Below, piece by piece: positions 6,105 through 25,145 of a stretch of DNA of 64,000 nt (position 1 is the first letter of the stretch; every line of letters begins with the position of its first letter). The position numbers and the translations under genes were made by a program. Origin of the DNA: an uncultured Bacteroidota bacterium (GTDB taxonomy: Bacteria > Bacteroidota > Bacteroidia > AKYH767-A > OLB10); contig CAINEC010000162.1 in assembly GCA_903847585.1 (NCBI GenBank), positions 33,427 to 97,426 on the forward strand, read 5' to 3'. Under the pieces are notes generated by a model that was not told where the DNA came from, made no database searches, and saw only the letters and a program-made list of their open reading frames with translations.

Positions 6105-7766
6105 ATGATGCTTCGAAATAACTTCTTTTATTCATTGGTCTGCCTCTTTTTAGGGATTACTTTTTCTTCATTAGGACAAAATAACAAGCCCGATTTTAGA
6201 TCGCCGGTGGATATTCCGATTTCACTGGCAGGCAATTTTTGTGAAATCAGACCCAATCATTTTCATTCGGGTATCGATATCCGAACAAACGGAAAGGAAG
6301 GCTTGCCCATCTTCGCAATTGGTGATGGATATGTTTCAAGAATCAAGGTGAGTCCAACAGGATTTGGAAGAGTCGTTTATATCAACCATCCCGAAGGATA
6401 TACCTCCGTTTATGCCCATTTATCTTCTTTCAATTCTCCGTTGGATGCTTTTGTTGACTCCATTCAAAAGGCCAACGAATCATACGATATGGAAGAATTT
6501 CCCGATGCTAAAAGATTCAAAGTCAAAAAAGGGGATTGCATAGGATTCAGCGGTAACTCTGGTTCGAGTTCATCGCCACATCTACATTTCGAAATTCGTG
6601 ATTTGAATTCGGAAGAGCCATTGAATCCGCTGGCATTTTTAAATTATGAAGATTCTATTGCACCAGTTATTGAACGGATTAGAATAGTCCATATCAATTT
6701 AGATAAAGTTTATCAACCAATAACTGATATCTCAACTTCAGATTATTTAATAACTGTAATCACTGGCATTGATTATGGGGATTATTATTTTGAATTAAAA
6801 GGAAGTGACAATAGTGGAGATTCGTATATGAACTTTTATTCCATTAACGTAATGACAAATAAAGGCGATACACTATTTGATTGTAAGTTCGACCGATTTA
6901 ATTTCGACGAAACAAGAATGGTAAATTCATTTATTAATTACTCTTCATTAGTAAACGATAAAGAAGAATGGCAAAGACTTTACAAGCTACCCTCCAACAC
7001 AGCTACACTATTTAAAAACTGTATTTCGAAACCACTTACCATTTCGGATGATAATGATACAATATATTTTAAAGTTACTGACTATAGTGGCAATTCAACA
7101 GTTGAACAAGTCATACTATACGGATTTAAACAAGAAGAAATAATAGGAGATTATAAAGAATCAATTTGCAGATATTACAATGAAAGTTTTACCATTCCTT
7201 TTAAATATGGATTCATGAATATCCCTGCTAGTGGAATAGATCAATCACTTTGTTACGAGTTAACCGATTACGATACGCTTCCGGATTCAACAACCTTTTT
7301 AATTGGTGATCCGTCTGTCCCTTTAATCAAGAATGCAACGGTGGTGATTCAAAAAAAACTGGGCACTAACTTTTGGCTTTGCGAACGAAATTGGAAGAAT
7401 GAATTGACCGGAACCTCCTTCAAGTTAGACAGTGCGAAATACGGTTATCAAACAAGCATTAAAAAAATGGGATGGTACTCGGTAGAATGCGATAGTGTAG
7501 CACCACAACTCATAAAAGTAATATCAGAAAAAGACCCTATCATCAAGGAACAGAAAAACATATTATTAAAAATCAGCGATGATATTTCAGGAGTTAAAAA
7601 AGCCAATGTATTCATTAATGGAAATTTCCTTCCATGCGAATTTGATTTGAAACGTAGCAGCGTTGTGATTAAAGGAAGTCAACTCAAAAAAGGTGATATC
7701 ATCCAATTAAAATTAATCGACTATCAAGGAAATACTAATTTAATAGAAAATGTCGATTGGAATTGA
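6105..7766 (+). CDS. M23 family metallopeptidase (exported)
   Basis: Signal peptide and motifs HFHSGIDI, YAHL, GNSGSSSSPHLHFE. Confidence 0.9.
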   Translation: MMLRNNFFYSLVCLFLGITFSSLGQNNKPDFRSPVDIPISLAGNFCEIRPNHFHSGIDIRTNGKEGLPIFAIGDGYVSRIKVSPTGFGRVVYINHPEGYTSVYAHLSSFNSPLDAFVDSIQKANESYDMEEFPDAKRFKVKKGDCIGFSGNSGSSSSPHLHFEIRDLNSEEPLNPLAFLNYEDSIAPVIERIRIVHINLDKVYQPITDISTSDYLITVITGIDYGDYYFELKGSDNSGDSYMNFYSINVMTNKGDTLFDCKFDRFNFDETRMVNSFINYSSLVNDKEEWQRLYKLPSNTATLFKNCISKPLTISDDNDTIYFKVTDYSGNSTVEQVILYGFKQEEIIGDYKESICRYYNESFTIPFKYGFMNIPASGIDQSLCYELTDYDTLPDSTTFLIGDPSVPLIKNATVVIQKKLGTNFWLCERNWKNELTGTSFKLDSAKYGYQTSIKKMGWYSVECDSVAPQLIKVISEKDPIIKEQKNILLKISDDISGVKKANVFINGNFLPCEFDLKRSSVVIKGSQLKKGDIIQLKLIDYQGNTNLIENVDWN

Positions 7767-7829
7767 TAAGGGTCATTCGCTTACTATGATGTAAGTCATT
7801 TTAAAATGTTATTCGTCGCTGTACTTTTG
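7764..7829 (+). promoter_or_regulatory. tandem FNR-like boxes plus -7 promoter element driving a short transcript
   Basis: TGATAAGGGTCA (7764-7775), TGATGTAAGTCA (7787-7798), 23-nt gap, TACTTTTG (7822-7829). Confidence 0.8.
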
Positions 7830-7834
7830 ATTTC

Positions 7835-7921
7835 GAGATGGAGACATCCCAACGTACTAGAATAATAGTACCATAGTTTACTGGTTTGGTTAGAGCTGTC
7901 GAAGGACAGCTCTACTTTTTT
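7835..7921 (+). ncRNA. candidate small RNA (or 12-aa peptide mRNA) under Crp/Fnr-type control
   Basis: Has its own promoter upstream. Hairpins GATG-GAGA-CATC and GTACTA-GAATAA-TAGTAC, a single-stranded UGGUUUGGU linker and a perfect 10-bp terminator. The next gene has a separate -7-like element (TACATTCG, 7925-7932). Confidence 0.65.
7891..7921 (+). terminator. intrinsic terminator
   Basis: TAGAGCTGTC-GAAG-GACAGCTCTA followed by CTTTTTT. Confidence 0.9.
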
Positions 7922-7942
7922 CCGTACATTCGCAATAGAATT

Positions 7943-8665
7943 ATGCTTGTTTTATTTTACTTTTTAGCGTTAGTGGCAGAGGTTGTTGGAACGATAGGTG
8001 GGTTTGGCTCCTCGATTTTTTTCGTACCTATTGCTTCTTTCTTTTTTGAACCGAAACTAGTATTAGGCATCACTGCATTTTTTCATGTGTTTAGTAATAT
8101 TTCAAAACTCATTTTGTTTGGCAAGCATATCAAAATGAAAATCGCCATCAAGTTTATTATTCCGAGTGTGATTGGAGTTATCATTGGAGCATTATTAATC
8201 GCTAATCAGTCGGGAGAACTATTTTCATTAGCCATCGGAATCTTCCTCATTCTATTTGCGCTATACTTTTTGATATTCCCTTCTCAAGCAATTGAAGCCT
8301 CTAATAAAAACATAATAATAGGAGGGAGCAGCGCAGGATTTTTAGCCGGATTTCTTGGAACAGGCGGAGTCATTCGTGGAGCAGCAATGGCAGCTTTTAA
8401 TCTCGAAAAGAATTGCTTTGTTGCTACCTCTGCATTTATCGATTTATTCGTTGATATTAGTCGTTCTGCAATCTACTATCAAAATGAATTTATCGCTCGT
8501 GATAAATTGTATTATATCCTTCCGTTGATTTTAATATCATTTGCTGGAAGCTATATTGGGAAATTAATTCTTGAAAAATTAAACCAAGATAAGTTCAGAA
8601 GAATAGTTTTAATTTTAATTTCGATAATGGGAACGGTATCGGTAATTCGATTTATATGCCAGTAA
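7943..8665 (+). CDS. sulfite exporter TauE/SafE family membrane protein
   Basis: GTIGGFGSSIFFVP and GFLAGFLGTGGVIRG repeats, about 8 TM segments. ATG at 7943 preferred because the longer ORF would start inside a terminator. Confidence 0.85.
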   Translation: MLVLFYFLALVAEVVGTIGGFGSSIFFVPIASFFFEPKLVLGITAFFHVFSNISKLILFGKHIKMKIAIKFIIPSVIGVIIGALLIANQSGELFSLAIGIFLILFALYFLIFPSQAIEASNKNIIIGGSSAGFLAGFLGTGGVIRGAAMAAFNLEKNCFVATSAFIDLFVDISRSAIYYQNEFIARDKLYYILPLILISFAGSYIGKLILEKLNQDKFRRIVLILISIMGTVSVIRFICQ

Positions 8666-9654
8666 AGGATAAAAATTTCAGGACAAAAGTAAATGCCATT
8701 TCTGTGGTGCTGGCACTTTCTGTTTTGATCATGCTCATCAAATTCGTTGCATATTACGTTACGAAATCGAATGCATTATTATCAGATGCCCTTGAATCGT
8801 TTATCAATATTGCCACCAGCTCTTTTACGCTTTACAGTATTTATTATTCTGCAAAATTAAAAGACCATGATCATCCTTACGGACATGGAAAAATTGAATA
8901 CCTCGCTGTAGGATTTGAAGGTGCCTTGATTTTAGGAACGGGCGTTTACATTTTATATGAAGCCTTTAATCATTTCATCCATCCAGAGCCTTTGCAAAAT
9001 GTAGATCTAGGAATTATGATTACTGCATCCACTGGACTATTCATGTATTTCATTGGATCGTTTCTTAAAAAGAAAGGGCGCGAGCTTGATTCCATTACAC
9101 TCGTTGCAGATGGAGAACATTTTCACTTGGATACGATAACCAGCATCGCACTAATTGTTGGATTAGTTTTATATCACTTAACTAAGTTACCATGGATTGA
9201 TCCATTGCTGGCTGCTTTATTAGCTGTACATATTATGATGAGTGGTTACAAGCTAACAAAAGAATCCATTGATCGTTTATTGGATAAAGCCGATTTCGAT
9301 ACGATACAAAATGTAGTAAACTCGTTAAATAAAAATCGTAAAGCAACTTGGATAGACATTCATAATTTACGAATGCAGCGATTCGGGAATATTATTCATA
9401 TCGATTGTCATCTGACGCTTCCATTTTATTACGCACTCGATCAAGTGCACAATGAAATTAAAAATTTAGAAGCTGATATCAATAAAGACTTCAATCAAGA
9501 AGTTGAATTTTTTGTTCATACAGATCCTTGTAATGAAGAATTCCCTTGCAAGCTATGTAATGTAGAAGAATGTGCTTTTCGAAAGTTCGAACACCTTCAA
9601 ACAGTTGATTGGGATATTAAAAATCTAATGGCTAATAAAAAGCATCAGCTGTAA
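8656..9654 (+). CDS. cation diffusion facilitator (CDF) transporter
   Basis: SNALLSDALES, DHDHPYGHGKIEY and ADGEHFHLD motifs, plus a C-terminal dimerisation domain with a Cys-rich tail. Confidence 0.92.
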   Translation: MPVKDKNFRTKVNAISVVLALSVLIMLIKFVAYYVTKSNALLSDALESFINIATSSFTLYSIYYSAKLKDHDHPYGHGKIEYLAVGFEGALILGTGVYILYEAFNHFIHPEPLQNVDLGIMITASTGLFMYFIGSFLKKKGRELDSITLVADGEHFHLDTITSIALIVGLVLYHLTKLPWIDPLLAALLAVHIMMSGYKLTKESIDRLLDKADFDTIQNVVNSLNKNRKATWIDIHNLRMQRFGNIIHIDCHLTLPFYYALDQVHNEIKNLEADINKDFNQEVEFFVHTDPCNEEFPCKLCNVEECAFRKFEHLQTVDWDIKNLMANKKHQL

Positions 9655-9696
9655 AATTTTTATTTGTATTAATATAAAATTAATTATTTTAGTCGA

Positions 9697-12912: not shown

Positions 12913-12999
12913 TAGAATATTTGCTCTTAAAATAGTTTCTTTTTACTTACAATTATTAGAAAACATATTAGACTTAATTAATTTGAAAAATTAACTGCC

Positions 13000-13365: not shown

Positions 13366-13399
13366 GCCAACTAAAAAACTCCAATAAATCGAGTTTCTT

Positions 13400-14104
13400 T
13401 CACTTACACATCTGATGTGTATTCAGTCTTTCATCCTTGCAACAATCACCATCGCCACTTTTCATGGTACTGCCTCGATGAATTAAAAACAAAGCTAAGG
13501 CTATTGCAATAAACGGAGATAGTTTGTTGATGGATAATTTTACTTTAGGACTAAAAATATTTTGAGATACTGCCACTAGGTACATCAATGGTAGGGTGCC
13601 TAATCCAAACAATAACATATAGAGCGCGGCATTGGTTATACCTCCATAGCTGATTGCACCTGCCATGGCTAAGTAAACAAATCCACAAGGTAATATTCCG
13701 TTTGCTAGTCCTACAACATACATTGCAGTAAATGATTTCTTCTTGATGTAATTTCCGATAACTGATTTTATCTTAAAAGACATTTTTACTAAACGTCCAT
13801 TGACTTTACTCAATAGTTTATCGTTTAAAAACAATACAACCAGGATGATTAATATTCCAGAGAAAATACTCAAATCACTTTGCAATCCTTTTAATTGAAA
13901 ACTAATTCCAATTAATCCTGCTATCACACCCAACAGCATATACATCGTAACACGACCGAGTTGGTACATCAAGCGACCAAGATAAAAATGTCTTGCATCA
14001 CCATCAACAACAGGTAATGATAACGCAATTGGTCCGCACATACCAAGGCAATGAAAACTCCCTAAAAATCCGAGCGACAACGCGCTGATCAGATAATAAT
14101 TCAT
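13400..14104 (-). CDS. DsbD_2/TauE-like membrane protein of the cbb3 assembly cluster
   Basis: GSFHCLGMCGPI, NGILPCGFVY and FGLGTLP motifs. Last gene of the cco cluster. Confidence 0.88.
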   Translation of the reverse strand: MNYYLISALSLGFLGSFHCLGMCGPIALSLPVVDGDARHFYLGRLMYQLGRVTMYMLLGVIAGLIGISFQLKGLQSDLSIFSGILIILVVLFLNDKLLSKVNGRLVKMSFKIKSVIGNYIKKKSFTAMYVVGLANGILPCGFVYLAMAGAISYGGITNAALYMLLFGLGTLPLMYLVAVSQNIFSPKVKLSINKLSPFIAIALALFLIHRGSTMKSGDGDCCKDERLNTHQMCK

Positions 14105-14105
14105 T

Positions 14106-14537
14106 TTACTGCATCATCAATTTTTCTTCTTGCAAATATTCTTTTCCATCACAACTCCATGCAATGGTCAATCGCCAGTAGCCTCCCGATAATTTATCCG
14201 ACTGAACCAGCATTTTACCGTTATCGTTTTTGATGTTCATTGTAAAATCCTTTTGCTTATCATTAGGACGATAAAATGTCAATGTGCCTTTTATGGCACG
14301 ATTAGCAAATTCAGAAGGAAAAGATAACTCAAGTGATTTGTCATTAACAGAATTACATACTACAGTTGCGGTAGCGGCATTCTGCATTTTATTATAACGG
14401 TCCTGATATTTTACTTCCTGATCGTAATAATTATCAGCAACTAATTCTGTGTTTTGTTGCGTGCATTTGTAAACCAATGTCAACATACCAACAACAAACA
14501 ACACATAAACAAACATTATTTTATATCCCCAATTCAT
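14106..14537 (-). CDS. ccoH: FixH/CcoH family protein
   Basis: MNWG.KI...TM helix, ELVADNYYDQE, G.LTFYRP.D. Follows ccoG. Confidence 0.85.
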   Translation of the reverse strand: MNWGYKIMFVYVLFVVGMLTLVYKCTQQNTELVADNYYDQEVKYQDRYNKMQNAATATVVCNSVNDKSLELSFPSEFANRAIKGTLTFYRPNDKQKDFTMNIKNDNGKMLVQSDKLSGGYWRLTIAWSCDGKEYLQEEKLMMQ

Positions 14538-14539
14538 AG

Positions 14540-15952
14540 CTATTTTATTTTTACAGGACCAATGAAATTAGTCTTGATCGTTTCAATTAATTTGTTGCCA
14601 GATTTTACTTCTAATACAATAGGCAGTCTTGCATCTACAATTTGATTTTGATTAATCATCACAAAGAATTCTCCATCAGCGCTACCTTGACCGTCTAATT
14701 TTGTAATCCCATCGCCAACCCATTTCACCGAGCCTGATGGTTGCACCAATTTAATTTCAACGGGCATCTGATCGAATGTTTTGTTAATCAGATTCACGGT
14801 ATATAAATTCGAATAGATGCTATCATTTTGTTGTTGGTAGATCATACCAGGAGTACGCAGTATAGTAGATTCCACATCGGAACGCATAATTAAAAGTGAC
14901 AATAGGGTAGTTAGCAAAACGAAGAGCACAAATGAATACGCTTTTATTCTTCCTGTTATTTGAAATTTCGTCCCTTCAGCAATAGAATTTTCACTTGTAT
15001 AACGAATTAGACCTTGTGGCTTTTTGATTTTATCCATGATGCCATCACAAGCATCAATACAAGCAGTACAATTTACACATTCGAGCTGCGTACCATTACG
15101 GATATCGATACCGGTAGGACAAACATTCACACATTGATGACAATCGATGCAATCACCAAATTTAGATTCAGCAGTCTTTTGCAATTTACCTCTTGGCTCT
15201 CCGCGTTTATAATCGTACGCAATAACCACCGAATTTTTATCAAGCAAAACACCTTGTAATCTTCCATAAGGACAAACAATTAAACAAGCCTGCTCGCGAA
15301 AACGCATATACACAGCAAAGAAGACGAATGTAAAAACGAGAATCGCTATTAATCCACCAACGTGATTGAATGGATCATCCAAAACAATTTGTTTTAATTC
15401 ATCGATGCCAATGATGTAAGCAAGAAATGTATTTGCAATGATAAATGAAATCAGAAAAAAGATACTTCCTTTTAAAATTCGCTTTCTGAATTTTTCGGGA
15501 GATGGAGGAGCATTCTTCAATGCCTTTTGTTGCGCTGCATCACCTTCAATCCAGTATTCAATTTTACGAAAGACCATTTCCATAAAAATGGTTTGCGGAC
15601 AAGCCCAACCACACCATAGTCGACCAAACAACGCTGTAAATACAATAATAAAAACAACGAACGTAAGCATCGCCAACACGAACAAGTAAAAGTCCTGTGG
15701 CCAAAATGCAATTCCGAATAAAATAAATTTTCGCTCAACAACATTTAATAACATGAATGGGTGTCCGTTTAATTTAATAAACGGACCCACAAACATGACT
15801 GCTAATAAGAAATAACTAAATAATGTCCTTTTATTATAAAAGCGACCTTTGGGTTTCTTCGGAAAAATCCAATTACGGTTACCGTCTTTAGAAATAGTTG
15901 AAATACTATCTCTAAAACTATCGGCTTCGTCGTAAATAGCGGGATCCATCAT
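14540..15952 (-). CDS. ccoG: cytochrome c oxidase accessory protein CcoG
   Basis: GRLWCGWACPQT, CLIVCPYGRLQ, CIDCHQCVNVCPTGIDIR and CVNCTACIDAC. Confidence 0.96.
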   Translation of the reverse strand: MMDPAIYDEADSFRDSISTISKDGNRNWIFPKKPKGRFYNKRTLFSYFLLAVMFVGPFIKLNGHPFMLLNVVERKFILFGIAFWPQDFYLFVLAMLTFVVFIIVFTALFGRLWCGWACPQTIFMEMVFRKIEYWIEGDAAQQKALKNAPPSPEKFRKRILKGSIFFLISFIIANTFLAYIIGIDELKQIVLDDPFNHVGGLIAILVFTFVFFAVYMRFREQACLIVCPYGRLQGVLLDKNSVVIAYDYKRGEPRGKLQKTAESKFGDCIDCHQCVNVCPTGIDIRNGTQLECVNCTACIDACDGIMDKIKKPQGLIRYTSENSIAEGTKFQITGRIKAYSFVLFVLLTTLLSLLIMRSDVESTILRTPGMIYQQQNDSIYSNLYTVNLINKTFDQMPVEIKLVQPSGSVKWVGDGITKLDGQGSADGEFFVMINQNQIVDARLPIVLEVKSGNKLIETIKTNFIGPVKIK

Positions 15953-15960
15953 TATAATTA

Positions 15961-16926
15961 TTAGTTAGCTGTAGTAGTAACTGTAGTTGCTGTTGAGTCA
16001 GTAGCAGTAGGAGCAGAGTCATCTACCCAAACATCACCTTGCGCTGGTTTTGGATTAGCAGGATTCGAATTCTGCATTGACAAAATATAACTTGAAACAG
16101 CTTGAATATTCTTAGGTGTTAATTGCGTTTTCCAGCTGATCATTCCTTTTAAAGGAACGCCATTCGTGATTGTTCTAAAAACATTTTTTATTCCACCACC
16201 ATGAATCCAATTAGGGTCCGTTAAATTGGGTCCTATGTTACCTTCCAAATTTTGACCGTGACAAGAAGTACAGTTTTTATTAAAAATTTCTTTTCCTTCA
16301 CTTAAAACAGTAGCATCTGCAATGAACTTAACATTTTCAGCAGTAACCATGTCCGCCATTTTTTCATTTCTAATTCGTTGAGCTTCATCAGCAGCTTGAA
16401 CAGAAGCAATGTACTCCTGATCTTGACTATAACCTGTTTTGAAAACATGGAAATGAAACACATAAATTACAGCCCATATAATGGTGAAGTAAAAACCCCA
16501 TTTCCACCAAGGAGGTAAATTATTATCTAACTCACGAATGCCATCATAGTCATGATGAAGCATGATGTCCTCTTCCTTTTCAACGGGTACTGCTTGCGTT
16601 AAAACGTTACGATCAAAGCGAGACCAAAACGATTCTGTCTGAACAAGCTTTACCGTTTCTGATTTTAACTGCTGCTCTTTTTGAGGAGCCATTCCTCTTG
16701 CAATAACTAGTAACGTTCTTGCCATAACGAAAATGGCAATCAAGAGAATCAGAATAAAAATAGCCAGGTAATAAAAAGAAGGTTGGTAGAATAGTGGATC
16801 AACGGTTTTAAAGTATTGTCCACTGTTCGCTACTGTTGTACTATCTGTTATCGCTTGTGCATGCACTGTTGTATTCATAAACATCAGGCCTGCAATAAAT
16901 CCTATAGAGATGATATGTTTTTTCAT
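15961..16926 (-). CDS. ccoP: cbb3-type cytochrome c oxidase subunit CcoP
   Basis: HDYDGIRELDNNLPPWW, a single CTSCH haem motif, GPNLTD. Start probably MKKHII at 16926. Confidence 0.93.
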   Translation of the reverse strand: MKKHIISIGFIAGLMFMNTTVHAQAITDSTTVANSGQYFKTVDPLFYQPSFYYLAIFILILLIAIFVMARTLLVIARGMAPQKEQQLKSETVKLVQTESFWSRFDRNVLTQAVPVEKEEDIMLHHDYDGIRELDNNLPPWWKWGFYFTIIWAVIYVFHFHVFKTGYSQDQEYIASVQAADEAQRIRNEKMADMVTAENVKFIADATVLSEGKEIFNKNCTSCHGQNLEGNIGPNLTDPNWIHGGGIKNVFRTITNGVPLKGMISWKTQLTPKNIQAVSSYILSMQNSNPANPKPAQGDVWVDDSAPTATDSTATTVTTTAN

Positions 16927-16936
16927 GATAATCAAT

Positions 16937-17113
16937 TTATGCGTTATTGGTTTCGTCGTTGCTTAATGGCAACCTGCTTATTTCATTTAACTCTTCTTTG
17001 TTTGCCTTTACCACATAAACAATCAAGGCAGTAAAGAATACGAAGAATACCAGCAGAGAGAACATAGGATAAATACCTACGTCAGTAATTTGTTCTAAAT
17101 ATTGTTTAAACAT
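16937..17113 (-). CDS. ccoQ: cbb3-type oxidase subunit CcoQ (58 aa; not in ORF track)
   Basis: Manual translation MFKQYLEQITDVGIYPMFSLLVFFVFFTALIVYVVKANKEELNEISRLPLSNDETNNA*. One TM helix plus LPL, located between ccoNO and ccoP. Confidence 0.9.
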   Translation of the reverse strand: MFKQYLEQITDVGIYPMFSLLVFFVFFTALIVYVVKANKEELNEISRLPLSNDETNNA

Positions 17114-17121
17114 ATGCTTGC

Positions 17122-19254
17122 TTATTTTGTAGTTGAATTATCAGAAACTTTATTTGCTTTAATGTCGACACCTAATCGTTGTAAGTAGGCAATCATTGCT
17201 ACTAACTCTTTATTTGCATCGATAGGAGCACCACTCTTATTTAAGTCAGCAGCAATTTCATTTGCTTGCTTCATCAAATCAGCATTGGCTTGTTGATCAT
17301 ACCCTTTTGTGTAAGGAACACCTAACGTAATCATTGCTCTGATTTTTGCTGGAGTAGAAGCAGTATCTAAATTATTTTCTGCAAGAAAAGCATACGGAGG
17401 CATGATAGAACCTGGCGACATAGTTCGAGGATCAATCATATGATGATAATGCCATACGTTTTGATATTTTCCTCCTACACGTAATAAATCTGGACCTGTT
17501 CGCTTAGAACCCCATTGGAAAGGATGATCATACACAAACTCTCCAGCTTTAGCATATTCACCATAACGTTCTGTTTCGTGACGGAACGGACGCACCATTT
17601 GCGAGTGACAAGTGTAACAACCTTCACGGATATAAATATCACGACCTTGTAATTCAAGTGGAGTATAAGGCTTCACAGATGCAATCGTTGGAATATTTTC
17701 TTTAATCATGAATGTTGGAATCATCTCCACTAATCCACCAATTAAAATCAACACCGTTGCAAACAACATCATCTGAATTGGTCTTCTTTCAATCCAACGA
17801 TGCCAGTGACCACCTTCATGAACAGGAACGGCTTCTAATGCTGGAGCTTCTGCTGGTTCATTCGCTAATAAATCGCCCGTCTTCATCGTCATCACTAAAT
17901 TGTAAACCATCGTTAACGCACCTGCTAAATACAATGTACCACCAACAGCACGTAACTTATACATCGGCATTAACTTCGTTACCGTTGCTAAAAAGTTTGG
18001 ATATTTTAATAATCCATCATCTGTAAATTGTTGCCACATCATGTATTGTTCAAACCCTGCCCAATACATCGGAATGGCATAGAATAAAATTCCTAACGTT
18101 GCTAACCAGAAGTGATAGCTTGCTAATTTTTTAGAGTATAACTCGGTTTGATAAATGCGAGGGATTAACCAATATAAAATACCAAACGTTAACATACCAT
18201 TCCATCCTAGTCCACCAATGTGCACGTGAGCGATAGTCCAATCTGTAAAGTGAGAAATTGCATTCACTGATTTCAATGATAACATCGGACCTTCAAATGT
18301 TGCCATACCGTAAGCAGTGATTGCAACAACCATAAACTTCAATACAACACTTTCACGAACACGATCCCATGCACCACGTAATGTCAACAGTCCGTTAATC
18401 ATACCACCCCAGCTCGGAGCAATTAACATGATAGAGAAAACAGTTCCTAATGATTGCGCCCAATCAGGTAATGCAGTATATAATAAGTGATGAGGACCAG
18501 CCCAGATGTAAATAAAAATTAAAGCCCAAAAGTGAATGATTGATAATCGATAAGAATACACCGGACGATTAGCAGCCTTCGGAACGAAATAATACATCAA
18601 ACCTAAATACGGCGTAGTTAAAAAGAAGGCTACTGCATTATGTCCGTACCACCATTGCACTAACGCATCTTGCACACCTGCATATACAGGATAACTCTTT
18701 AAAAGACTTACTGGAATTTCAATACTATTTACAATGTGAAGTACTGCAACAGTAACCACCGTTGCAATATAAAACCAAATGGCAACATATAGATGTCGCT
18801 CGCGACGTTTGATAATAGTACCAAACATATTCACCGCAAATACAACCCAAGTAAGTGTGATCAAGATATCAATCGGCCATTCTAATTCAGCATATTCTTT
18901 ACCTGTAGTATGTCCTGTAATTAATGTTAATGCAGCAAGCACAATAATCGATTGCCACATCCAGAAATGAAGCTTGCCTAACAAGTCACTAAATAATCTC
19001 GCTTTCGTTAAACGTTGAAGGGAATAATACAATCCCATAAAAATTCCATTACCTACAAAGGCAAAAATGATTGCGTTGGTATGTATAGGTCGTACGCGAC
19101 CAAATGTAACATACTCACCTGCGTTTAAACCAGGAAAAGGAATTTGAAGGGCTGCAATTAAACCCACCAACATTCCTACAATTCCCCAGATAATTGTCGC
19201 AATTGCAAAATTCCTAACAATGCGATTGTCGTAGCTATACTTCTCAATTGTCAT
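17122..19254 (-). CDS. ccoN: fused cbb3 oxidase subunits I/II (CcoN-CcoO)
   Basis: CcoN motifs QWWYGHNAVAF, WAGPHHL and AHVH. CcoO motifs EGCYTCHSQMVR and WGSKRTGPDL. Confidence 0.97.
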   Translation of the reverse strand: MTIEKYSYDNRIVRNFAIATIIWGIVGMLVGLIAALQIPFPGLNAGEYVTFGRVRPIHTNAIIFAFVGNGIFMGLYYSLQRLTKARLFSDLLGKLHFWMWQSIIVLAALTLITGHTTGKEYAELEWPIDILITLTWVVFAVNMFGTIIKRRERHLYVAIWFYIATVVTVAVLHIVNSIEIPVSLLKSYPVYAGVQDALVQWWYGHNAVAFFLTTPYLGLMYYFVPKAANRPVYSYRLSIIHFWALIFIYIWAGPHHLLYTALPDWAQSLGTVFSIMLIAPSWGGMINGLLTLRGAWDRVRESVVLKFMVVAITAYGMATFEGPMLSLKSVNAISHFTDWTIAHVHIGGLGWNGMLTFGILYWLIPRIYQTELYSKKLASYHFWLATLGILFYAIPMYWAGFEQYMMWQQFTDDGLLKYPNFLATVTKLMPMYKLRAVGGTLYLAGALTMVYNLVMTMKTGDLLANEPAEAPALEAVPVHEGGHWHRWIERRPIQMMLFATVLILIGGLVEMIPTFMIKENIPTIASVKPYTPLELQGRDIYIREGCYTCHSQMVRPFRHETERYGEYAKAGEFVYDHPFQWGSKRTGPDLLRVGGKYQNVWHYHHMIDPRTMSPGSIMPPYAFLAENNLDTASTPAKIRAMITLGVPYTKGYDQQANADLMKQANEIAADLNKSGAPIDANKELVAMIAYLQRLGVDIKANKVSDNSTTK

Positions 19255-19426
19255 AATGATTGATTTTTGATTTTTCGTTTGATGTTATTTCATTATCCAT
19301 TAATATGCGAACTGCAGGGGAAGTATCATCATCAAATTGCCCTGTTTTTACAGACCAGAAAAATGCAATCAGAAATCCGATAGCAACGGTTAAACTGGCA
19401 ATGATTAAAAGGATGATTACTTTCAT
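19244..19426 (-). CDS. ccoS: cbb3 assembly protein CcoS
   Basis: TM helix followed by FFWSVKTGQFDD..SPAVRIL. Confidence 0.93.
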   Translation of the reverse strand: MKVIILLIIASLTVAIGFLIAFFWSVKTGQFDDDTSPAVRILMDNEITSNEKSKINHYDN

Positions 19427-19434
19427 AACGGGAG

Positions 19435-19499
19435 CAAATCTATTTCGAGAGTGGGATTAATTAAATGACCGCTATTAGGGTGATTTATGATAATTGTCA
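19435..19499 (-). promoter_or_regulatory. tandem FNR-like boxes plus -7 element for ccoS-NOQPGH
   Basis: -7 element TAGATTTG (minus, 19435-19442), 23-nt gap, boxes at 19466-19477 (TGACCGCTATTA) and 19488-19499 (TGATAATTGTCA). Confidence 0.8.
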
Positions 19500-19501
19500 A
19501 C

Positions 19502-21919
19502 CTACTTCGTGAAACCTAATTGACGTGCTTTTATCGAGCTGGCCACTACCGTATATATCACTAAACTGCTCGTACTGATAGGCATTAAAATAGCCGCAAT
19601 TACAGGCGACAAAGTTCCTTGTACGGCAAACCATAATCCCAGAAAATTATACACCAGTGATATGATAAAACTGATGATGATAATTCGGTTAGCTGACTTG
19701 GCAAGACGAATTAACTTCTCCAATTTTGATAAATTACTTCCAATAATAATAGCATCACATGCAGGAGTAAAGTTGTTGATGTCGTTTGAAATGGCAATTC
19801 CTACATGGCCATGCATTAACGCACCAGCATCATTTAATCCATCACCAACCATCATCGTTTTAAATCCATGTTGATTAAGTTCATTGATGTAATTTAATTT
19901 ATCAATGGGTTTGCAATGAAAGCGCATATGCGTTCCTTCGGGAAGAATTGTACTTAGGTTGATTCGCTCATGCTCATCATCACCGCTGATCACACCTAAT
20001 TGAATATTGTGATTTGATAAGTCGGAAGTTAACTCCTTAACACCTTCGCGATATTTATTTTGAATTGCGAAATAGCCGTATATTTCATTATCAATTCCAA
20101 TATATACTCGTGTTGACTTTAATGTATCGAGTTGTTTTTTTCCTGTCAGGTATTCTTCACTTCCAATTTTATAGTGATGTCCGAAAATCATGGCCGTTAA
20201 TCCTTGACCAGGAAATTCTTCAATATGAATAGATGTATCTGCGAATGCTTTTAATTTCAAATATTTCGATAATACAATACTTAATGGATGAGTAGAAGAC
20301 GATACTATTGTATAGATAGCACGTAAATGAAAATCGCTCAATTCAACACCGACATAATTTATCTGATTAGATTCAGGCTCTGTTAATGTGCCTGTCTTAT
20401 CAAATATAACAGTATCAATATCCGCCAACTTTTCAATCACCTGAACATTGCGTAGATAAATTCCTTTCTTACCAAGCAATCGAATGATATTTCCGAAGGT
20501 AAACGGAGCAGATAATGCTAATGCACAAGCACAAGCAATAACCAACACCGCAGTGAAAGCATTAATTGCTCTTGTAAAATCCTGATGATACCAATAAGCA
20601 AATGATGATATAGCAATAACAACAGTTACCAAGACAAACCAACGGCTAATGGTATTCACCATTTTTTGAAAATAACTGGTCTGATTAACTTTATCACTTT
20701 GTTGATTCCAAAGTTTAGTCAAGTAACTATTAGAGGTAGCCTGATCTACCATCACGTCAATAGGACCATTCAATAATTTAGCTCCCGCATAAATCAATTC
20801 ACCTTTATTGACTTTAACTGGTGTCGATTCTCCAGAAACAAAACTATAATCAATATGAGCCGATTGATTTAAGAGTTTTACATCCGCAGGAATAATCTCA
20901 TGATTACGAATCTTCAGACGATCACCTTTAACAACATCATTAACTAAAACAGTTTCTTCTTTAATGCCATTGTATCTCGTAACAGCAATAGGGAAGTAGG
21001 AGGTATAATCCCTGTTAAAAGAAAGCCATTGATAGGTTTTATCTTGAAAATTTCTTCCAATAAGCATGAAGAAGATAAGTCCGGTCATACTATCAAAATA
21101 GCCAGGGCCAGTACCAGAAACAATTTCGTACAAGCTTCTTAAAAACATGGCTAAAATACCAATGGCAATAGGCACATCAATATTGACAACCTTTTGTCGG
21201 AAGCTTCTGAAAGAGTTTATAAAAAATTCACTTGCAGAATAAAAGAAAACCGGCAATGCTAAAACCACAATCACATATCGAAATAATTGTCGGAAGTCCT
21301 CAGCGCCAAAAACACCTCCCGATAAATATTCAGGAAAACTCAACAACATAATATTTCCAAAAGCAAATCCCGCTAAACCGATTTTATAAATCCTTGCATT
21401 CGATTTTTTAGCGAACTGATGATTGCTGACTTTATTTAAATTCAATTCTGGCTCGTAACCAATTAAAGTAAGTTGTTCAACTATATTGCGAAGGGAAGTT
21501 GCCGACGAATTAAAAACAATCAATATTTCCTTACTTACAAAATCAACTTGTGATCGTACCACGCCCTTATCGATTCTTGAAAAATTCTCTAACAACCAAA
21601 TACAACTACTACAATGCATATTCGGAATATGGAAACGAATATGAACTTCATTCTTAGATTTAAAACTGATTAACTTCTCAATAATTTGCTCTTCCTCTAA
21701 AAAAGCAAAGCGATTACCGAGATAACTGTTCTTACGATTTATGCCAGGGTTATCGGAAATAGCGTAATAATTACAAAGGTTGTTTTCATTCAGTACTTCA
21801 TATACTAACTTACAGCCTACGCAACAAAAGTCTTTATCATCAAATTTAACTTTGTCTTCTTCACACTTTTCGTGACAATGATAACAATTGGTAACTACTG
21901 AAGTATTTGTTAATGACAT
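19502..21919 (-). CDS. ccoI: CcoI/FixI-type P1B heavy-metal ATPase
   Basis: N-terminal CYHC...FCCVGC, MHCSSC metal-binding domain, DKTGTLT, HP and GDGLND. Adjacent to the cco genes. Confidence 0.92.
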   Translation of the reverse strand: MSLTNTSVVTNCYHCHEKCEEDKVKFDDKDFCCVGCKLVYEVLNENNLCNYYAISDNPGINRKNSYLGNRFAFLEEEQIIEKLISFKSKNEVHIRFHIPNMHCSSCIWLLENFSRIDKGVVRSQVDFVSKEILIVFNSSATSLRNIVEQLTLIGYEPELNLNKVSNHQFAKKSNARIYKIGLAGFAFGNIMLLSFPEYLSGGVFGAEDFRQLFRYVIVVLALPVFFYSASEFFINSFRSFRQKVVNIDVPIAIGILAMFLRSLYEIVSGTGPGYFDSMTGLIFFMLIGRNFQDKTYQWLSFNRDYTSYFPIAVTRYNGIKEETVLVNDVVKGDRLKIRNHEIIPADVKLLNQSAHIDYSFVSGESTPVKVNKGELIYAGAKLLNGPIDVMVDQATSNSYLTKLWNQQSDKVNQTSYFQKMVNTISRWFVLVTVVIAISSFAYWYHQDFTRAINAFTAVLVIACACALALSAPFTFGNIIRLLGKKGIYLRNVQVIEKLADIDTVIFDKTGTLTEPESNQINYVGVELSDFHLRAIYTIVSSSTHPLSIVLSKYLKLKAFADTSIHIEEFPGQGLTAMIFGHHYKIGSEEYLTGKKQLDTLKSTRVYIGIDNEIYGYFAIQNKYREGVKELTSDLSNHNIQLGVISGDDEHERINLSTILPEGTHMRFHCKPIDKLNYINELNQHGFKTMMVGDGLNDAGALMHGHVGIAISNDINNFTPACDAIIIGSNLSKLEKLIRLAKSANRIIIISFIISLVYNFLGLWFAVQGTLSPVIAAILMPISTSSLVIYTVVASSIKARQLGFTK

Positions 21920-21938
21920 ATCATTTAAATCTTGAATA

Positions 21939-22003
21939 CAAGATTATTCAATGTATACACCTATACTAATGACAAATGTCAGTTGCTATTTTGATAGTGG
22001 TCA
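21939..22003 (-). promoter_or_regulatory. tandem FNR-like boxes plus -7 element for ccoI
   Basis: -7-like TAATCTTG (minus, 21939-21946), 23-nt gap, boxes TGACAAATGTCA (21970-21981) and TGATAGTGGTCA (21992-22003). Confidence 0.8.
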
Positions 22004-22024
22004 CAAAACATTTTTTCCAAAAAG

Positions 22025-22089
22025 TGGTTTAAATTATATCTATGAATGACGTAGGTCATTTGCAACTCATCTTGAATAAAGCAATTTTG
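22025..22089 (+). promoter_or_regulatory. FNR-like box(es) plus -7-like element for the divergent hypothetical gene
   Basis: TGACGTAGGTCA (22047-22058), 23-nt gap, CAATTTTG (22082-22089). Degenerate upstream box TGGTTTAAATTA at 22025-22036. Confidence 0.65.
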
Positions 22090-22109
22090 CAAATACATAA
22101 TTGAACAAC

Positions 22110-22511
22110 ATGTTATCCGAAACAAAAGCGTCGAGCTCGCTACACCTTTACATCGATTTAAACTCAAGACTTTCTGAAATCCAAAGAGAGTTCAATTCTT
22201 ATTTCCCATTCTTAAAGATTGAATTTTTTAAAGCACCTCATAAAATCGGACAAGGATTAAAGAAAGATCTAATCATCAATTCGAATAAATTAGTGAAGGA
22301 TTGTTCAACTATCAAAAAGGGTGGTGTAATTGAATTTACCAATATCACTCCTGTAAGCGATTTAGAAACGAAATTTTTCAAAGACTTTAAATTATCTGTG
22401 CAGGTATTTAGAAAGGCAGGTAGGGTATGGTTAGAAACAACTGCAACAGATAGCTGGACCTTAGCGCAACAAAATGAAGAAGGCGCTGAATTCTCAACGC
22501 CATCTAAATAA
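22110..22511 (+). CDS. hypothetical protein (133 aa) in the microaerobic cluster
   Basis: Clean ORF containing FPFLKIEFF and VQVFRKAGRVWLETTATDSWTLAQQN, preceded by an FNR-like box. ATG at 22110. Confidence 0.75.
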   Translation: MLSETKASSSLHLYIDLNSRLSEIQREFNSYFPFLKIEFFKAPHKIGQGLKKDLIINSNKLVKDCSTIKKGGVIEFTNITPVSDLETKFFKDFKLSVQVFRKAGRVWLETTATDSWTLAQQNEEGAEFSTPSK

Positions 22512-22524
22512 TTTGATCTTCCTT

Positions 22525-23583
22525 TTAAGCTTTTAAATGACGAAGCTTTTCATCATTGATGATTTTAATTTTTCCGTCTTTAATCTCAATTAACTTTTCT
22601 TCTTTAAAATCACTAAGCGTTCTAATCAACGACTCTGTAGCTGTCCCAACAATATTGGCTAAATCTTCACGAGCGATTGCCATAGCAAAATGAGATGCAT
22701 CAGTCGTCTTGTACTTATCTTGTAATAAAATCAATGCCTCGGCAGTTCTCTTTCTAACAGAACTGTAAGCCAATTCTAATAGACGTTCTTGCTTATCGAT
22801 AACACCCTTTGTTAAAAAACGAATGAAGTTCTTCGTAACGGCATGGTTGCTATAAACCAGATTGAAAAATTCTTCCTTAGGAATAAAAATCACTTCTGAC
22901 TCTTCTAATGTTTCAGCACTTTCAATATAAGGCTTTTCTTCTAACAGTGATACATATCCGAAGAAATCACCTTCTTTCAACAAATCAGTGATCAACTCTT
23001 TACCATACTCATGCGTCTTAGTAATTTTTACTTTACCTGACTTCACATAATAAATTCCGTTAGGGTAGTGGTGCTCCTGATAAATCTTTTCTTTCTTTTT
23101 ATAATGATTCACTTTTTTGCCATCCAGGAATTTCTTCAAGGCTGCATCACCAGCCACATCACTGATGAAATGACTTAGTCCATCAAAGTCAGGTTGATAA
23201 TCTTTCTTAAGTGCATCAGCTCTTTTCAAACGACTTTCAATAGCATTTAATAGCTCCGTCTTATCAAAAGGTTTGGTGATATAATCATCGGCACCTAAAT
23301 CCATTCCTTTACGCATATCGCTACGTTCTGCTTTTGCTGTCAGGAAGATAAATGGAACTGAGTTTAAATCGGTATCCTTGCTCAGTAAATGTAAAACTCC
23401 ATAGCCATCTAAACCTGGCATCATGATATCACAGATAATCAAATCTGGTTTTTCCTTACGAGCCATTTCAACACCATCTTTTCCATCAGGTGCTGTACAA
23501 ACTGTATAATTCGCCAGCTCTAAAATCTCAGCTGTATTTTCTCTTACATCCAGATTGTCTTCAATTAATAAAATCTTTTTCAT
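22525..23583 (-). CDS. response regulator: REC domain fused to Crp/Fnr cNMP-binding and HTH domains
   Basis: REC (LLIEDN, CDIMMP, FLTAK, KPF), cNMP-like (YYVKSGKVKI, GDFFG) and Crp-HTH (REDLANIVGTATESLIRTLSDF). Confidence 0.93.
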   Translation of the reverse strand: MKKILLIEDNLDVRENTAEILELANYTVCTAPDGKDGVEMARKEKPDLIICDIMMPGLDGYGVLHLLSKDTDLNSVPFIFLTAKAERSDMRKGMDLGADDYITKPFDKTELLNAIESRLKRADALKKDYQPDFDGLSHFISDVAGDAALKKFLDGKKVNHYKKKEKIYQEHHYPNGIYYVKSGKVKITKTHEYGKELITDLLKEGDFFGYVSLLEEKPYIESAETLEESEVIFIPKEEFFNLVYSNHAVTKNFIRFLTKGVIDKQERLLELAYSSVRKRTAEALILLQDKYKTTDASHFAMAIAREDLANIVGTATESLIRTLSDFKEEKLIEIKDGKIKIINDEKLRHLKA

Positions 23584-23587
23584 AGCA

Positions 23588-24829
23588 TTAATTTATTTGA
23601 TTCGGAAAAGTGATCTCGATCCTTGTTCCTTCGTTTAGTTTACTAGTTAAATGTAAATGACCTTTCATAATGTCAACATAGTTGCCCACAATATGTAACC
23701 CTAATCCTGTACCTTGAATATTAAATGCATTTTTTCCTCTATAGAAACGTTCAAACAAATGCTTCAAATCTTCCTCGCTAATTCCAATTCCCTGATCTTG
23801 CACCACCATTTTTATTTCATTGGAATTCACATCTGCATCCAATGTTATAGACTTGCCTTCTGATGAAAATTTAATAGCATTACTTAAAAGATTAAAAAGA
23901 ATATTCTTGATTAGCTTAGCATCAAGAAACACCAAATTATCACCATGATAATTAATAACTATTTCCTGTCCTGCTTTTGTATTCTGACGCATATCACTCG
24001 CAATTTCATTCATCAGAATATTCAAATCGAACATACTCATATCTGCATGAATCTTTCCTTCTTCTAATTTACTGATAGATAGAAAATCACTTAAGATATC
24101 ATTCAGGTTATTAACTGAAGACTGAATTCGTTTGATATGCTTTTGCTTTTTCTCTTCTTGCTCGGGAGTTTTATATTCTGAAATCAAAACAGCAGAAGAA
24201 AGGATAGTGGTGAGTGGTGTACGAAACTCATGCGATGCCATTGAAATAAATCGCGACTTTAAATCATTCAGGTCTTTTTCTTTTTCGAGGGCCATACTTA
24301 ATTCTGATCTCGACTTCTCTAATTCCAAAATTGCTTCTTGCAAAACGCTGGTACGATCAGAAACCTTACGTTCTAAATCTTCATTCGACTTTTGCAAGGT
24401 AAGTGCAATCTGCTCAAGCTCTAATTGTTTTTCCCTTACAGAAGCTTCAATCTTCTTTCTAACAGAAATATCAATCAAAAAGGCAATGATGTATTTGCGA
24501 TCATCCTTAAAAATAGGACTCAAGCTAATCTCTATTGGGAACAAGGTGCCATCTTTTCTCAATGCATGTAAATCTAAACCTAATCCCATCGGACGAGCAT
24601 GTGGCTTATCGATATACGATTTACGATGATGTTCATGATGTCCTTTGATGTTCTTAGGTACTAATACATCAATCGATTCATTTAATAATTCATTCGACTC
24701 ATATCCGAACATCTTACATGCTGCTGGATTCATCAATTGAATCAATCCACTTTCATTGGAAATAATAATCCCTTCAGTAGCATGATTGAACAGGGCATCG
24801 AGTAACTCGACTTTCTCAAAATTCTGCAT
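23588..24829 (-). CDS. cytoplasmic PAS histidine kinase, FixL-like
   Basis: PAS (MNPAACKMFGY...LVP...HHEHHRKSY...RKDGTLFPIEISLS), HisKA (ASHEFRTPL) and HATPase (NLLSNAIKF, DQGIGI, GTGLGL). No TM segment. Confidence 0.92.
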   Translation of the reverse strand: MQNFEKVELLDALFNHATEGIIISNESGLIQLMNPAACKMFGYESNELLNESIDVLVPKNIKGHHEHHRKSYIDKPHARPMGLGLDLHALRKDGTLFPIEISLSPIFKDDRKYIIAFLIDISVRKKIEASVREKQLELEQIALTLQKSNEDLERKVSDRTSVLQEAILELEKSRSELSMALEKEKDLNDLKSRFISMASHEFRTPLTTILSSAVLISEYKTPEQEEKKQKHIKRIQSSVNNLNDILSDFLSISKLEEGKIHADMSMFDLNILMNEIASDMRQNTKAGQEIVINYHGDNLVFLDAKLIKNILFNLLSNAIKFSSEGKSITLDADVNSNEIKMVVQDQGIGISEEDLKHLFERFYRGKNAFNIQGTGLGLHIVGNYVDIMKGHLHLTSKLNEGTRIEITFPNQIN

Positions 24830-24878
24830 TTGACTAAAATAAGTAAGCTCTAAAAATAAACATTTTTAATGCGCTCTA

Positions 24879-25058
24879 TTATTTATTGCTGCTATATCCT
24901 GCTAAATAATACAACGGACAAAATCCAGAAGCACCTGTTACAAACGGGATTAAACCCGAAATTGCCCAAAATGAATTATGATAGATAAAAAAAGACGCGA
25001 CAGTTACTCCAGCAACTAAGCGAATAACTCGTTCATTAAAATTTTCATTGGTTACCAT
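24879..25058 (-). CDS. DUF2892/YgaP-like small membrane protein (59 aa; not in ORF track)
   Basis: Manual translation MVTNENFNERVIRLVAGVTVASFFIYHNSFWAISGLIPFVTGASGFCPLYYLAGYSSNK*, matching the N...ER.IR...G....TG..GFCPLY..G signature. Confidence 0.85.
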   Translation of the reverse strand: MVTNENFNERVIRLVAGVTVASFFIYHNSFWAISGLIPFVTGASGFCPLYYLAGYSSNK

Positions 25059-25080
25059 AGTGATATTTATTTGTTGAATC

Positions 25081-25145
25081 CAAAAGTAGATGCTCCATCC
25101 AACGAAATAAATTACGCTAATCAGTACACGTTATGATAAATGTCA
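25081..25145 (-). promoter_or_regulatory. tandem FNR-like boxes plus -7 element for DUF2892 (and probably the kinase/regulator)
   Basis: -7 element TACTTTTG (minus, 25081-25088), 23-nt gap, boxes at 25112-25123 (TTACGCTAATCA) and 25134-25145 (TGATAAATGTCA). Confidence 0.8.

Follow-up and report, generated by a model that had tools for sequence, protein, structure and literature searches.

We examined a 64,000-nucleotide stretch of DNA from an uncultured Bacteroidota bacterium (contig CAINEC010000162.1 of assembly GCA_903847585.1; hereafter the window), in which five promoters share one layout. A 12-mer of the type TGAY-N4-RTCA, where Y is C or T, R is A or G and N4 stands for any four bases, ends 23 nt before a TAnnTTTG-like -7 element, and in four of the five promoters a second such box lies further upstream. 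This layout is real and far beyond chance, and it recurs near the regulator gene in many other Bacteroidia. The promoters precede the genes of a cbb3 oxidase, its copper ATPase and associated proteins, together with an operon encoding a sensor kinase and a response regulator whose receiver (REC) domain is fused to a Crp/Fnr module. We propose, with a probability of about 0.6, that these parts form a two-component low-oxygen switch in which the signal would pass from the kinase to the regulator, from the regulator to the tandem boxes, and from there to cbb3 and the associated genes.

Boxes, spacing and promoter geometry

Direct reading and a script located strict TGAY-N4-RTCA boxes at positions 7764, 7787, 19488, 21970, 21992, 22047 and 25134. 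The first-pass annotation of this DNA had named ten 12-mers of this form, arranged as pairs in all five promoters. Seven of the ten are strict; a single defined base deviates at 19466 (TGACCGCTATTA) and likewise at 25112 (TTACGCTAATCA), which the annotation had not pointed out, and two deviate at 22025 (TGGTTTAAATTA). The paired arrangement holds in four promoters and fails in front of orf136, where 22025 was rejected as distal partner because the position is not conserved in the seven closest loci (the window and L031–L036, 2–5 mismatches); this promoter has a single box. The distances given by the annotation were confirmed, with box starts separated by 23 bp in the pair 7764/7787 and by 22 bp in the remaining pairs, and with exactly 23 nt between the end of the proximal box and the -7 element in all five cases. 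Measured against the Bacteroidota sigma-A promoter, the -7 element is exact in three promoters (7822, TACTTTTG; 19435, reverse complement, TAGATTTG; 25081, reverse complement, TACTTTTG) and has one mismatch in two (21939, reverse complement, TAATCTTG; 22082, CAATTTTG), both deviations being kept in the orthologous promoters. The elements are as follows:

7764..7775, + strand: distal box of the TauE/CDF promoter, TGATAAGGGTCA, overlapping the stop codon of an M23 peptidase gene
7787..7798, + strand: proximal box of the TauE/CDF promoter, TGATGTAAGTCA
7822..7829, + strand: -7 element of the TauE/CDF promoter, TACTTTTG, 23 nt past the proximal box
19488..19499, - strand: distal box of the ccoS-ccoNO promoter, TGACAATTATCA
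19466..19477, - strand: proximal box of the ccoS promoter, TAATAGCGGTCA, one mismatch
19435..19442, - strand: -7 element of the ccoS promoter, TAGATTTG, 23 nt past the proximal box
21992..22003, - strand: distal box of the ccoI promoter, TGACCACTATCA
21970..21981, - strand: proximal box of the ccoI promoter, TGACATTTGTCA
21939..21946, - strand: -7 element of the ccoI promoter, TAATCTTG, one conserved mismatch, 23 nt past the proximal box
22047..22058, + strand: single box of the orf136 promoter, TGACGTAGGTCA, without a conserved distal partner
22082..22089, + strand: -7 element of the orf136 promoter, CAATTTTG, conserved CAnnTTTG form, 23 nt past the box
25134..25145, - strand: distal box of the regulator's own operon (DUF2892 promoter), TGACATTTATCA
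25112..25123, - strand: proximal box of the same operon, TGATTAGCGTAA, one mismatch, conserved in this half-degenerate form
25081..25088, - strand: -7 element of the same operon, TACTTTTG, 23 nt past the proximal box

Within the window, strict boxes are weakly in excess of shuffled sequence (11 against 5.9 ± 2.5; 5 of 100 shuffles reach 11), and across the source genome, a draft of 2.99 Mb and 35.7% G+C in 203 contigs that is 99% complete, they are fewer than base composition predicts (211 against 254). Strict tandem pairs occur twice genome-wide, both times inside the window. Seven pairs were found at 21–23 bp with at most one mismatch in total; four are the promoters described here and three lie on contigs C48, C114 and C131. 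When box and -7 element were scanned together, allowing one mismatch, the 23-nt spacer gave 18 genomic sites, five of them the promoters in the window, compared with about 9 at most other spacers (8–22 and 26–44 nt); the counts for 24 and 25 nt, 25 and 17 sites respectively, were likewise raised.

A wider scan with one genome per species returned at least 594 relatives of the regulator, and the best 80 loci of other species (888 kb) were used for counting; among them are metagenome-assembled genomes labelled Chitinophagaceae, Cyclobacteriaceae, Flavobacteriales and Saprospirales, as well as cultured species. Here the box-to-(-7) distance peaks at 23 nt, with 109 sites compared with 0–14 at any other spacer between 8 and 44 nt (mean about 7); counting exact matches alone, there are 22 at 23 nt and 6 at 22 nt. 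Tandem pairs peak at 22 bp start-to-start, with 93 pairs compared with 0–4 elsewhere (about 1), and 57 of these best 80 loci have at least one site. As the species are related and not independent, the counts are no probabilities, but the peaks at 23 nt and 22 bp are too sharp to arise from composition. The positional enrichment that the first-pass annotation had made a check of its proposal is clear in the loci of relatives. Those parts of its interpretation that lend themselves to computation were supported.

Orthologous promoters point in the same direction. About 35 of the 41 relatives from the same order have a full-length orthologue of the regulator, 52–99% identical, and 20-kb loci from 20 of these relatives were compared; the synteny of the cco cluster is retained down to 60% regulator identity. 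The box with its 23-nt spacer recurs before ccoS in 8/8 loci, before ccoI in 8/12 (a count that includes a 'CcoI' match in L040 of 22% identity, probably no orthologue), before orf136 in 10/13, before the DUF2892 gene in 9/10, and before TauE in 5/5 genomes of the genus. At the TauE promoter, the proximal box is retained with a variable N4 in all five genomes, and the distal box is retained in three and degenerate in two. The distal ccoS box is perfect in all eight loci holding ccoS; its proximal box keeps the form TAAT-N4-RTCA in the genus and is perfect in L045 and L046. Both the ccoS promoter and that of the regulator's own operon combine a perfect distal box with a proximal box that is a conserved half-site variant. 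The ccoI -7 element reads TAATCTTG or TATTCTTG in all six syntenic loci, and a perfect distal box does stand before orf136 in three more distant loci (L042, L045 and L046). Because box arms and distances are constant across orthologous promoters while the N4 core and the spacer sequences vary, the pattern has the signature of a protein-binding site.

In mapped promoters of Flavobacterium psychrophilum, TAnnTTTG occupies positions -12 to -5 (PMC9723704). With this rule applied, a 12-bp box ending 23 nt before the element would span -47 to -36 with its centre at -41.5, and the distal box would be centred at about -63.5, about two helical turns away. CRP and FNR bind at -41.5 in class II promoters, which agrees with the placement that the first-pass annotation had given to the proximal box, and the two boxes would lie on roughly the same helical face, as it had also proposed. 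Of 108 sites, 81 have T at the first position past the proximal box, 63 at the second and 52 at the third, and the first base after distal boxes is T in 29 of 64; TTTG stands directly past the box in 3 of 109 sites, and the -33 slot is only T-rich. The -33 element of Bacteroidota is TTTG or TTG, located about 19 bp upstream of the -7 element. We read the T tract after the proximal box as a weak remnant of the -33 element, in which case the 23 nt would be made up of 4 nt plus the 19-bp spacer. Promoters that depend on an activator would be expected to have such a weak -33 and deviant -7 elements. The distance from the ccoS -7 element to the ccoS ATG is 8 nt, the same in 6/6 closer-relative loci and 14 nt in two distant ones; with a transcription start about 5 nt past the -7 element, the ccoS mRNA would be almost leaderless.

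The regulator, its kinase and the reader of the boxes

With Pfam matches as a guide, the region from 7.7 to 25.2 kb holds a TauE/CDF unit, the cbb3 operon, ccoI, orf136 and an operon of DUF2892, kinase and regulator genes:

7943..9654, + strand: TauE-family membrane protein and CDF cation-efflux protein (Pfam)
13400..19426, - strand: cbb3 oxidase operon with ccoS, a ccoN-ccoO fusion, ccoP, ccoG, fixH and a DsbD_2-family protein (Pfam)
19244-19426, - strand: ccoS (Pfam)
17122-19254, - strand: ccoN-ccoO fusion (Pfam)
19502..21919, - strand: ccoI/fixI P-type (copper) ATPase (Pfam)
22110..22511, + strand (longer open reading frame from 22101): orf136, hypothetical protein of 136 amino acids, convergent with the regulator gene
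24879..25058, - strand: YgaP-like (DUF2892) membrane protein, 59 amino acids, first gene of its operon
23588..24829, - strand: PAS-HisKA-HATPase sensor kinase, its PAS domain resembling the haem-PAS of FixL and DosP
22525..23583, - strand: response regulator with REC, cyclic nucleotide (cNMP)-binding-like and HTH_Crp parts, helix TATESLIR

None of the DsbD_2 protein, the DUF2892 protein, the kinase, the regulator and orf136 reaches the cut-off of any NCBIfam model. The TauE gene likely starts at ATG 7943 rather than 7886, as the tblastn alignments of relatives begin at residue 20 of the longer open reading frame.

The regulator matches PF00072 (2.1e-30), PF00027 (6.4e-22), PF13545 (1.1e-13) and PF00325 (1.7e-05). 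The receiver residues D9, D52, T82 and K104 expected of a response regulator are invariant in 14 and in 40 orthologues, and a cNMP-binding-like beta-barrel is followed by a Crp-type helix-turn-helix, as in the CRP/FNR superfamily. In the structural model (predicted local distance difference test, pLDDT, 86), the C-terminal part of about 210 residues matches CAP, GlxR, Aliivibrio fischeri FNR (5E44) and the P. gingivalis structure 2GAU, with Foldseek E values of about 1e-16 to 1e-14; among the top 50 solved structures, none spans both the receiver and the Crp part. Two hallmarks of FNR proper are absent: the N-terminus is a receiver domain without the Cys cluster that would hold an iron–sulphur (Fe-S) centre, and the recognition helix TATESLIRTLSDF reads E-S-L-I-R, with Ile at the Ser position. 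FNR recognizes its site through E-x2-S-R, using the E, S and R, and its consensus has T as the outer base. Here E317 and R321 are invariant in the same two sets of orthologues, and of 108 sites 39 have A, 42 C, 14 G and 13 T outside TGA. The first-pass annotation had linked a helix that keeps E-x3-R and lacks the FNR Ser with a relaxed outer T, and both parts are borne out.

Apart from the regulator, just one other protein of the source genome scores above the Pfam cut-off for the Crp family, a protein of 209 amino acids on contig C193 with the helix SREVISR. A Cys-rich FNR-like query retrieved the fused regulator as its sole match in the source genome (E 1.3e-41, 38% identity) and the C193 protein did not match it at E <= 0.001; the regulator is the sole member of its FNR-like subfamily found there. 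On C193 itself (L052:1483-1494, - strand), a palindrome, GTGATATTAGTCAC, lies 23 nt before CAACTTTG, between the Crp-family gene and genes for OsmC-like and rhodanese proteins. A CRP-like Arg-Glu helix is expected to prefer GTGA-N6-TCAC, and the site beside the C193 gene has just these G/C flanks; it is probably the paralogue's own CRP-type site, set at the same promoter spacing.

An intact fusion is missing from five relatives. In two of them, G016 and G029, CcoNO had no match either. In G013, the regulator gene (C12:17671-18725) and ccoNO (C4:17193-19193) are both interrupted by stop codons or frame breaks, which may reflect either decay of the whole system or an assembly error. In G017 and G033, CcoNO is present, boxes precede ccoS at the usual distances, and a stand-alone FNR-like protein of 236 amino acids is encoded. 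Such stand-alone proteins, 236–271 amino acids long, were located in five relatives (G017, G033, G029, G027 and G031):

L140:2180-2890, - strand: stand-alone FNR-like protein
L141:2092-2802, + strand: stand-alone FNR-like protein
L142:2062-2817, + strand: stand-alone FNR-like protein
L143:1751-2566, + strand: stand-alone FNR-like protein
L144:2154-2864, + strand: stand-alone FNR-like protein

They share 38% identity with the Crp part of the regulator and carry the helix TATET(T/A)IR (TARETAIR in L144); they differ from it in an N-terminal C-x2-C-x8-C motif and in having no receiver. Judged by translation, their genes adjoin those of NosZ-, c-type-cytochrome-, HemN- or RIC-like products, with the same boxes 23 nt from -7-like elements nearby. 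Because unfused relatives carry the same boxes and nearly the same helix, the box would be a trait of the subfamily and not of the fusion alone, and this FNR-like subfamily exists in two forms, one of Fe-S type and one fused to a receiver. The fused form is the sole candidate reader found in the source genome, and the neighbouring REC-Crp/Fnr protein is apparently what reads the boxes.

The kinase gene lies directly upstream of the regulator gene in 73 of the 80 loci. The haem-PAS domains of FixL, at E 1e-13 to 1e-10, and DosP/EcDOS, at about 1e-12, are matched by its PAS domain. The haem-ligating His of FixL aligns with kinase H65, which is His in most of 72 aligned orthologues and is embedded in the conserved pattern H-x2-(H/Y)-R-x2-(Y/F)...R-x-M-G. 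Homology and proximal His thus agree with a FixL/DosP-type sensor, and the PAS domain likely binds haem, with oxygen as its putative ligand.

Predicted regulon and distribution

In the window, the boxes predict as targets the cbb3 operon, ccoI, orf136, TauE-CDF and the regulator's own operon. Of the 109 sites in the best 80 loci, 11 have orf136 as the first gene behind them, 10 the kinase gene, 6 ccoI, 6 ccoS, 2 the DUF2892 gene and 1 the regulator gene; two sites have no open reading frame behind them, and 71 precede other genes. After removal of duplicates, 64 of these with an open reading frame of at least 75 amino acids were put to Pfam, yielding Usp (9), HSP20 (7), DoxX (7), Pyridox_ox_2 (3) and glutamyl-tRNA reductase, HemA (2), with single matches to radical SAM (HemN-like), hemerythrin (RIC-like), Rrf2, S30AE, rhodanese and OsmC. 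Taken as predictions, the targets form a respiration-plus-dormancy set resembling FixK/FNR regulons together with the mycobacterial DosR regulon. The occurrence of the motif upstream of low-oxygen genes, which the earlier annotation had anticipated, is seen for cbb3 and its maturation genes in the window and for HemN-like and HemA genes elsewhere. In F. psychrophilum, cbb3 and haem synthesis are induced under oxygen limitation, and the main text of that transcriptome study never mentions Fnr or Crp (PMC9723704).

The commonest gene behind a box beside the regulator is orf136, which is present in 25 of the 80 loci. It has no Pfam or NCBIfam match and falls into hypothetical clusters alone in the protein atlas, most commonly in Bacteroidota. 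Its model (pLDDT 88; predicted template modelling score 0.82) consists of two beta-alpha-beta halves and matches no fold in the PDB at E <= 0.001. An alignment that leaves out the row of L045, which has a stop codon, displays the conserved motif VFRKSGxxWLETxxTDxWTLxQQNxEG.

For the distribution, 401 good genomes of the phylum were sampled and the regulator was scored at E <= 1e-70 over its full length. It was found in 57, namely the source genome, 53 of 100 others of the window's class and 3 of 300 from other classes; CcoNO was found in 258 of the 401. In a cross-tabulation made by hand for the 100 genomes of the same class, those with the regulator comprise 39 with cbb3 and 14 without a cbb3 match, and those in which it was not found comprise 31 with and 16 without.

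Between the TauE promoter and ATG 7943 lies a further conserved feature:

7834..7921, + strand: structured leader of 88 nt with three hairpins, predicted to be transcribed from that promoter

Its last hairpin is terminator-like, with a stem at 7891-7914 followed by a T run, and the fold has a z-score of -3.55. Across 5 of 12 genomes of the genus the leader sequence is almost unchanged, the surrounding promoter having diverged, and the terminator stem contains three compensatory pairs. As an Rfam search of positions 5000-28000 gave no match at E <= 1, the TauE leader included, it falls into no described RNA family. Possible roles are that of an attenuator or riboswitch acting on TauE-CDF, or of a small RNA co-induced with the regulon. 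Downstream, between the CDF and DsbD_2 genes (9655-13399), lie a type IIG restriction-modification gene of the Eco57I/MmeI-like kind (9697-12912) and a MORN-repeat gene (13000-13365). Because the CDF and DsbD_2 genes are only 10 nt apart in the 99%-identical relative G004 (locus L031), this stretch of about 3.7 kb looks like a recent insertion into the cluster.

Mechanism, alternatives and relation to known systems

In the proposed switch, a fall in oxygen, or a linked haem or redox signal, would be sensed by the FixL/DosP-like PAS domain of the soluble kinase, leading to phosphorylation of D52 in the receiver of the regulator. The gene sequence shows receiver and complete Crp/Fnr module to be one protein, whose active dimer would then bind to (A/C)TGAY-N4-RTCA(T/G) boxes. 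The proximal box abuts the -33 slot of a sigma-A promoter, in the predicted class II contact position, and in four promoters the second box would place another dimer upstream of it. Cooperative binding of the two dimers is suggested by the frequent pairing of a perfect box with a half-degenerate one. The outcome would be activation of the cbb3 operon, the CcoI copper ATPase, orf136, TauE/CDF with its structured leader, and the operon of the switch itself. FnrS is a low-oxygen small RNA of E. coli. A more far-reaching version, which we offer tentatively and consider possible rather than probable, would have the FixJ and FixK steps merged into one protein in aerobic Bacteroidia, with the haem-PAS kinase directly phosphorylating the fusion and a cooperatively bound pair of dimers at -41.5/-63.5 of -33/-7 promoters governing, throughout the class, a regulon for hypoxia and dormancy that comprises cbb3, haem synthesis, Usp, Hsp20 and ribosome hibernation, and with the 88-nt terminator-ended RNA of the genus as a possible FnrS-like low-oxygen small RNA.

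Several observations weigh against the low-oxygen switch as proposed. In the source genome, the single-box sites at 23 nt outside the window number 13, about background, and a strict site stands upstream of the kinase-regulator operon in just 17 of 74 loci. The figure of -41.5 depends on a rule taken from the mapped starts of another organism, and -63.5, which the first-pass annotation had roughly equated with class I, is no canonical class I position. In G017 and G033, boxes are kept before ccoS without a REC fusion, so the box does not belong to the fusion alone; a need for the receiver domain at tandem boxes is made less likely by a tandem pair in G033 (L141), where the FNR-like protein is solely of the unfused kind. 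A strict tie between the regulator and cbb3 was rejected, as the 39/14/31/16 table amounts to a weak association. Finally, the distal Arg of FixL, which contacts oxygen, aligns with Leu85 of the kinase and is M, L or R in orthologues, so that the ligand chemistry may differ from that of FixL.

This last point also favours the likeliest alternative, namely that the box grammar is real while the kinase senses nitric oxide or carbon monoxide, redox state, haem availability, or an energy or stationary-phase cue, cbb3 being one part of a dormancy and stress programme. General stress genes (Usp, Hsp20, DoxX and S30AE) are indeed numerous among the predicted targets, the regulator occurs without a cbb3 match in 14 of the 53 same-class genomes that have it, and the separate Cys-rich FNR-like protein of relatives could be the true oxygen sensor. 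However, the solved PAS domains closest to that of the kinase belong to oxygen sensors, FixL and DosP, and their axial His aligns, the core targets are a high-affinity oxidase and its maturation genes, joined by HemN-like and HemA genes at other loci, and no further FNR-like protein was found in the source genome. We consider a different signal unlikely, although far from negligible.

Still less probable is that another factor reads the boxes, either the C193 protein or the product of a gene missing from the assembly, and that the linkage to the regulator is incidental. The draft state of the genome leaves room for such a gene, a second Crp-family protein does exist, and relatives with the same boxes use a non-fused protein. 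Against this, the C193 protein gave no match to the FNR-like query at E <= 0.001, its helix is SREVISR and the site beside it, GTGA-N6-TCAC, has G/C flanks, the boxes here are preceded by A or C, with G in 14 of 108 cases, and 57 of 80 loci of other species have boxes grouped around the REC-Crp gene, whose product keeps E317 and R321 invariant. That the boxes are repression operators, or chance matches without function, is very improbable: the slight excess of strict boxes over shuffles in the window would allow it, but the sharp 23-nt and 22-bp peaks across 80 species, the conservation of boxes around a variable N4, their position upstream of the promoter core rather than over it, and weak or deviant -7 elements without a clear -33 TTTG, as in activator-dependent promoters, all argue the other way.

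The low-oxygen switch has its nearest counterpart in FixL-FixJ-FixK of alpha-proteobacteria, where a haem-PAS kinase, a receiver protein and a Crp/Fnr-type activator control fixNOQP (cbb3), fixGHIS and haem genes through TGA-N6-TCA-type boxes under low oxygen. As far as sequence can tell, the same inventory is present here, with a haem-PAS-like kinase, a receiver, a Crp/Fnr-type module, TGA-N6-TCA-type boxes and cbb3 targets. In contrast to that system, receiver and Crp/Fnr module form a single polypeptide with no FixJ-to-fixK transcription step between them, A or C replaces T as the outer base of the box, the promoters are of the -33/-7 kind of Bacteroidota, the distal Arg of FixL is not kept, and the system is almost confined to one Bacteroidota class. 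With FNR of E. coli and A. fischeri, the regulator shares its fold, E and R of the helix, the TGA-N6-TCA core and, as predicted from the Flavobacterium promoters, a centre at about -41.5. It differs from FNR in the missing N-terminal Cys cluster, sensing being assigned in our proposal to a separate kinase that acts via the fused receiver, in the Ile that replaces the helix Ser, and in the packing of tandem sites 22 bp apart, which is the rule here and no exception. In the mycobacterial DosS/DosT-DosR system, haem kinases and a response regulator induce Usp, alpha-crystallin/Hsp20 and PNPOx-like proteins under hypoxia. The combination of a putative haem kinase and a response regulator and the Usp, Hsp20 and PNPOx-like targets recall this system, whereas DosR has a LuxR-type output and its sensors have GAF-haem domains, homology being confined to the receiver and kinase cores.

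We rate the logic as that of FixLJ-FixK and FNR control, and the system in Bacteroidia as a so far undescribed variant. In line with the first-pass annotation, which knew of no description of this promoter grammar in Bacteroidota, a literature search found none of the regulator, the box grammar or the regulon, although the supplementary tables of PMC9723704, which lay outside that search, might list a motif before cbb3. Database names for the regulator are 'response regulator' or generic labels only. In the text of a CRP/FNR meta-regulon study, homologues of Flavobacteriales and Saprospiraceae are treated as MalR-like carbon sensors and the word 'receiver' is absent (PMC8510549).

Low-oxygen sensing appears not to have been worked out in aerobic Bacteroidia, that is, in Chitinophagales, Cytophagales, Flavobacteriales and their uncultured relatives, and the present finding gives a candidate sensor-regulator pair together with a predicted regulon. 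Although the -33/-7 promoters of Bacteroidota are built differently, they would share the -41.5 geometry of proteobacterial activators, which bears on how sigma-A and RNA polymerase contact activators in this phylum. The DNA code box-N10-box-N23-TAnnTTTG can be searched for in any genome or metagenome, and cultured carriers of the regulator, namely Chitinophaga filiformis, Adhaeribacter terrigena, Emticicia agri, Lacibacter sp. and Ferruginibacter sp., make the system testable.

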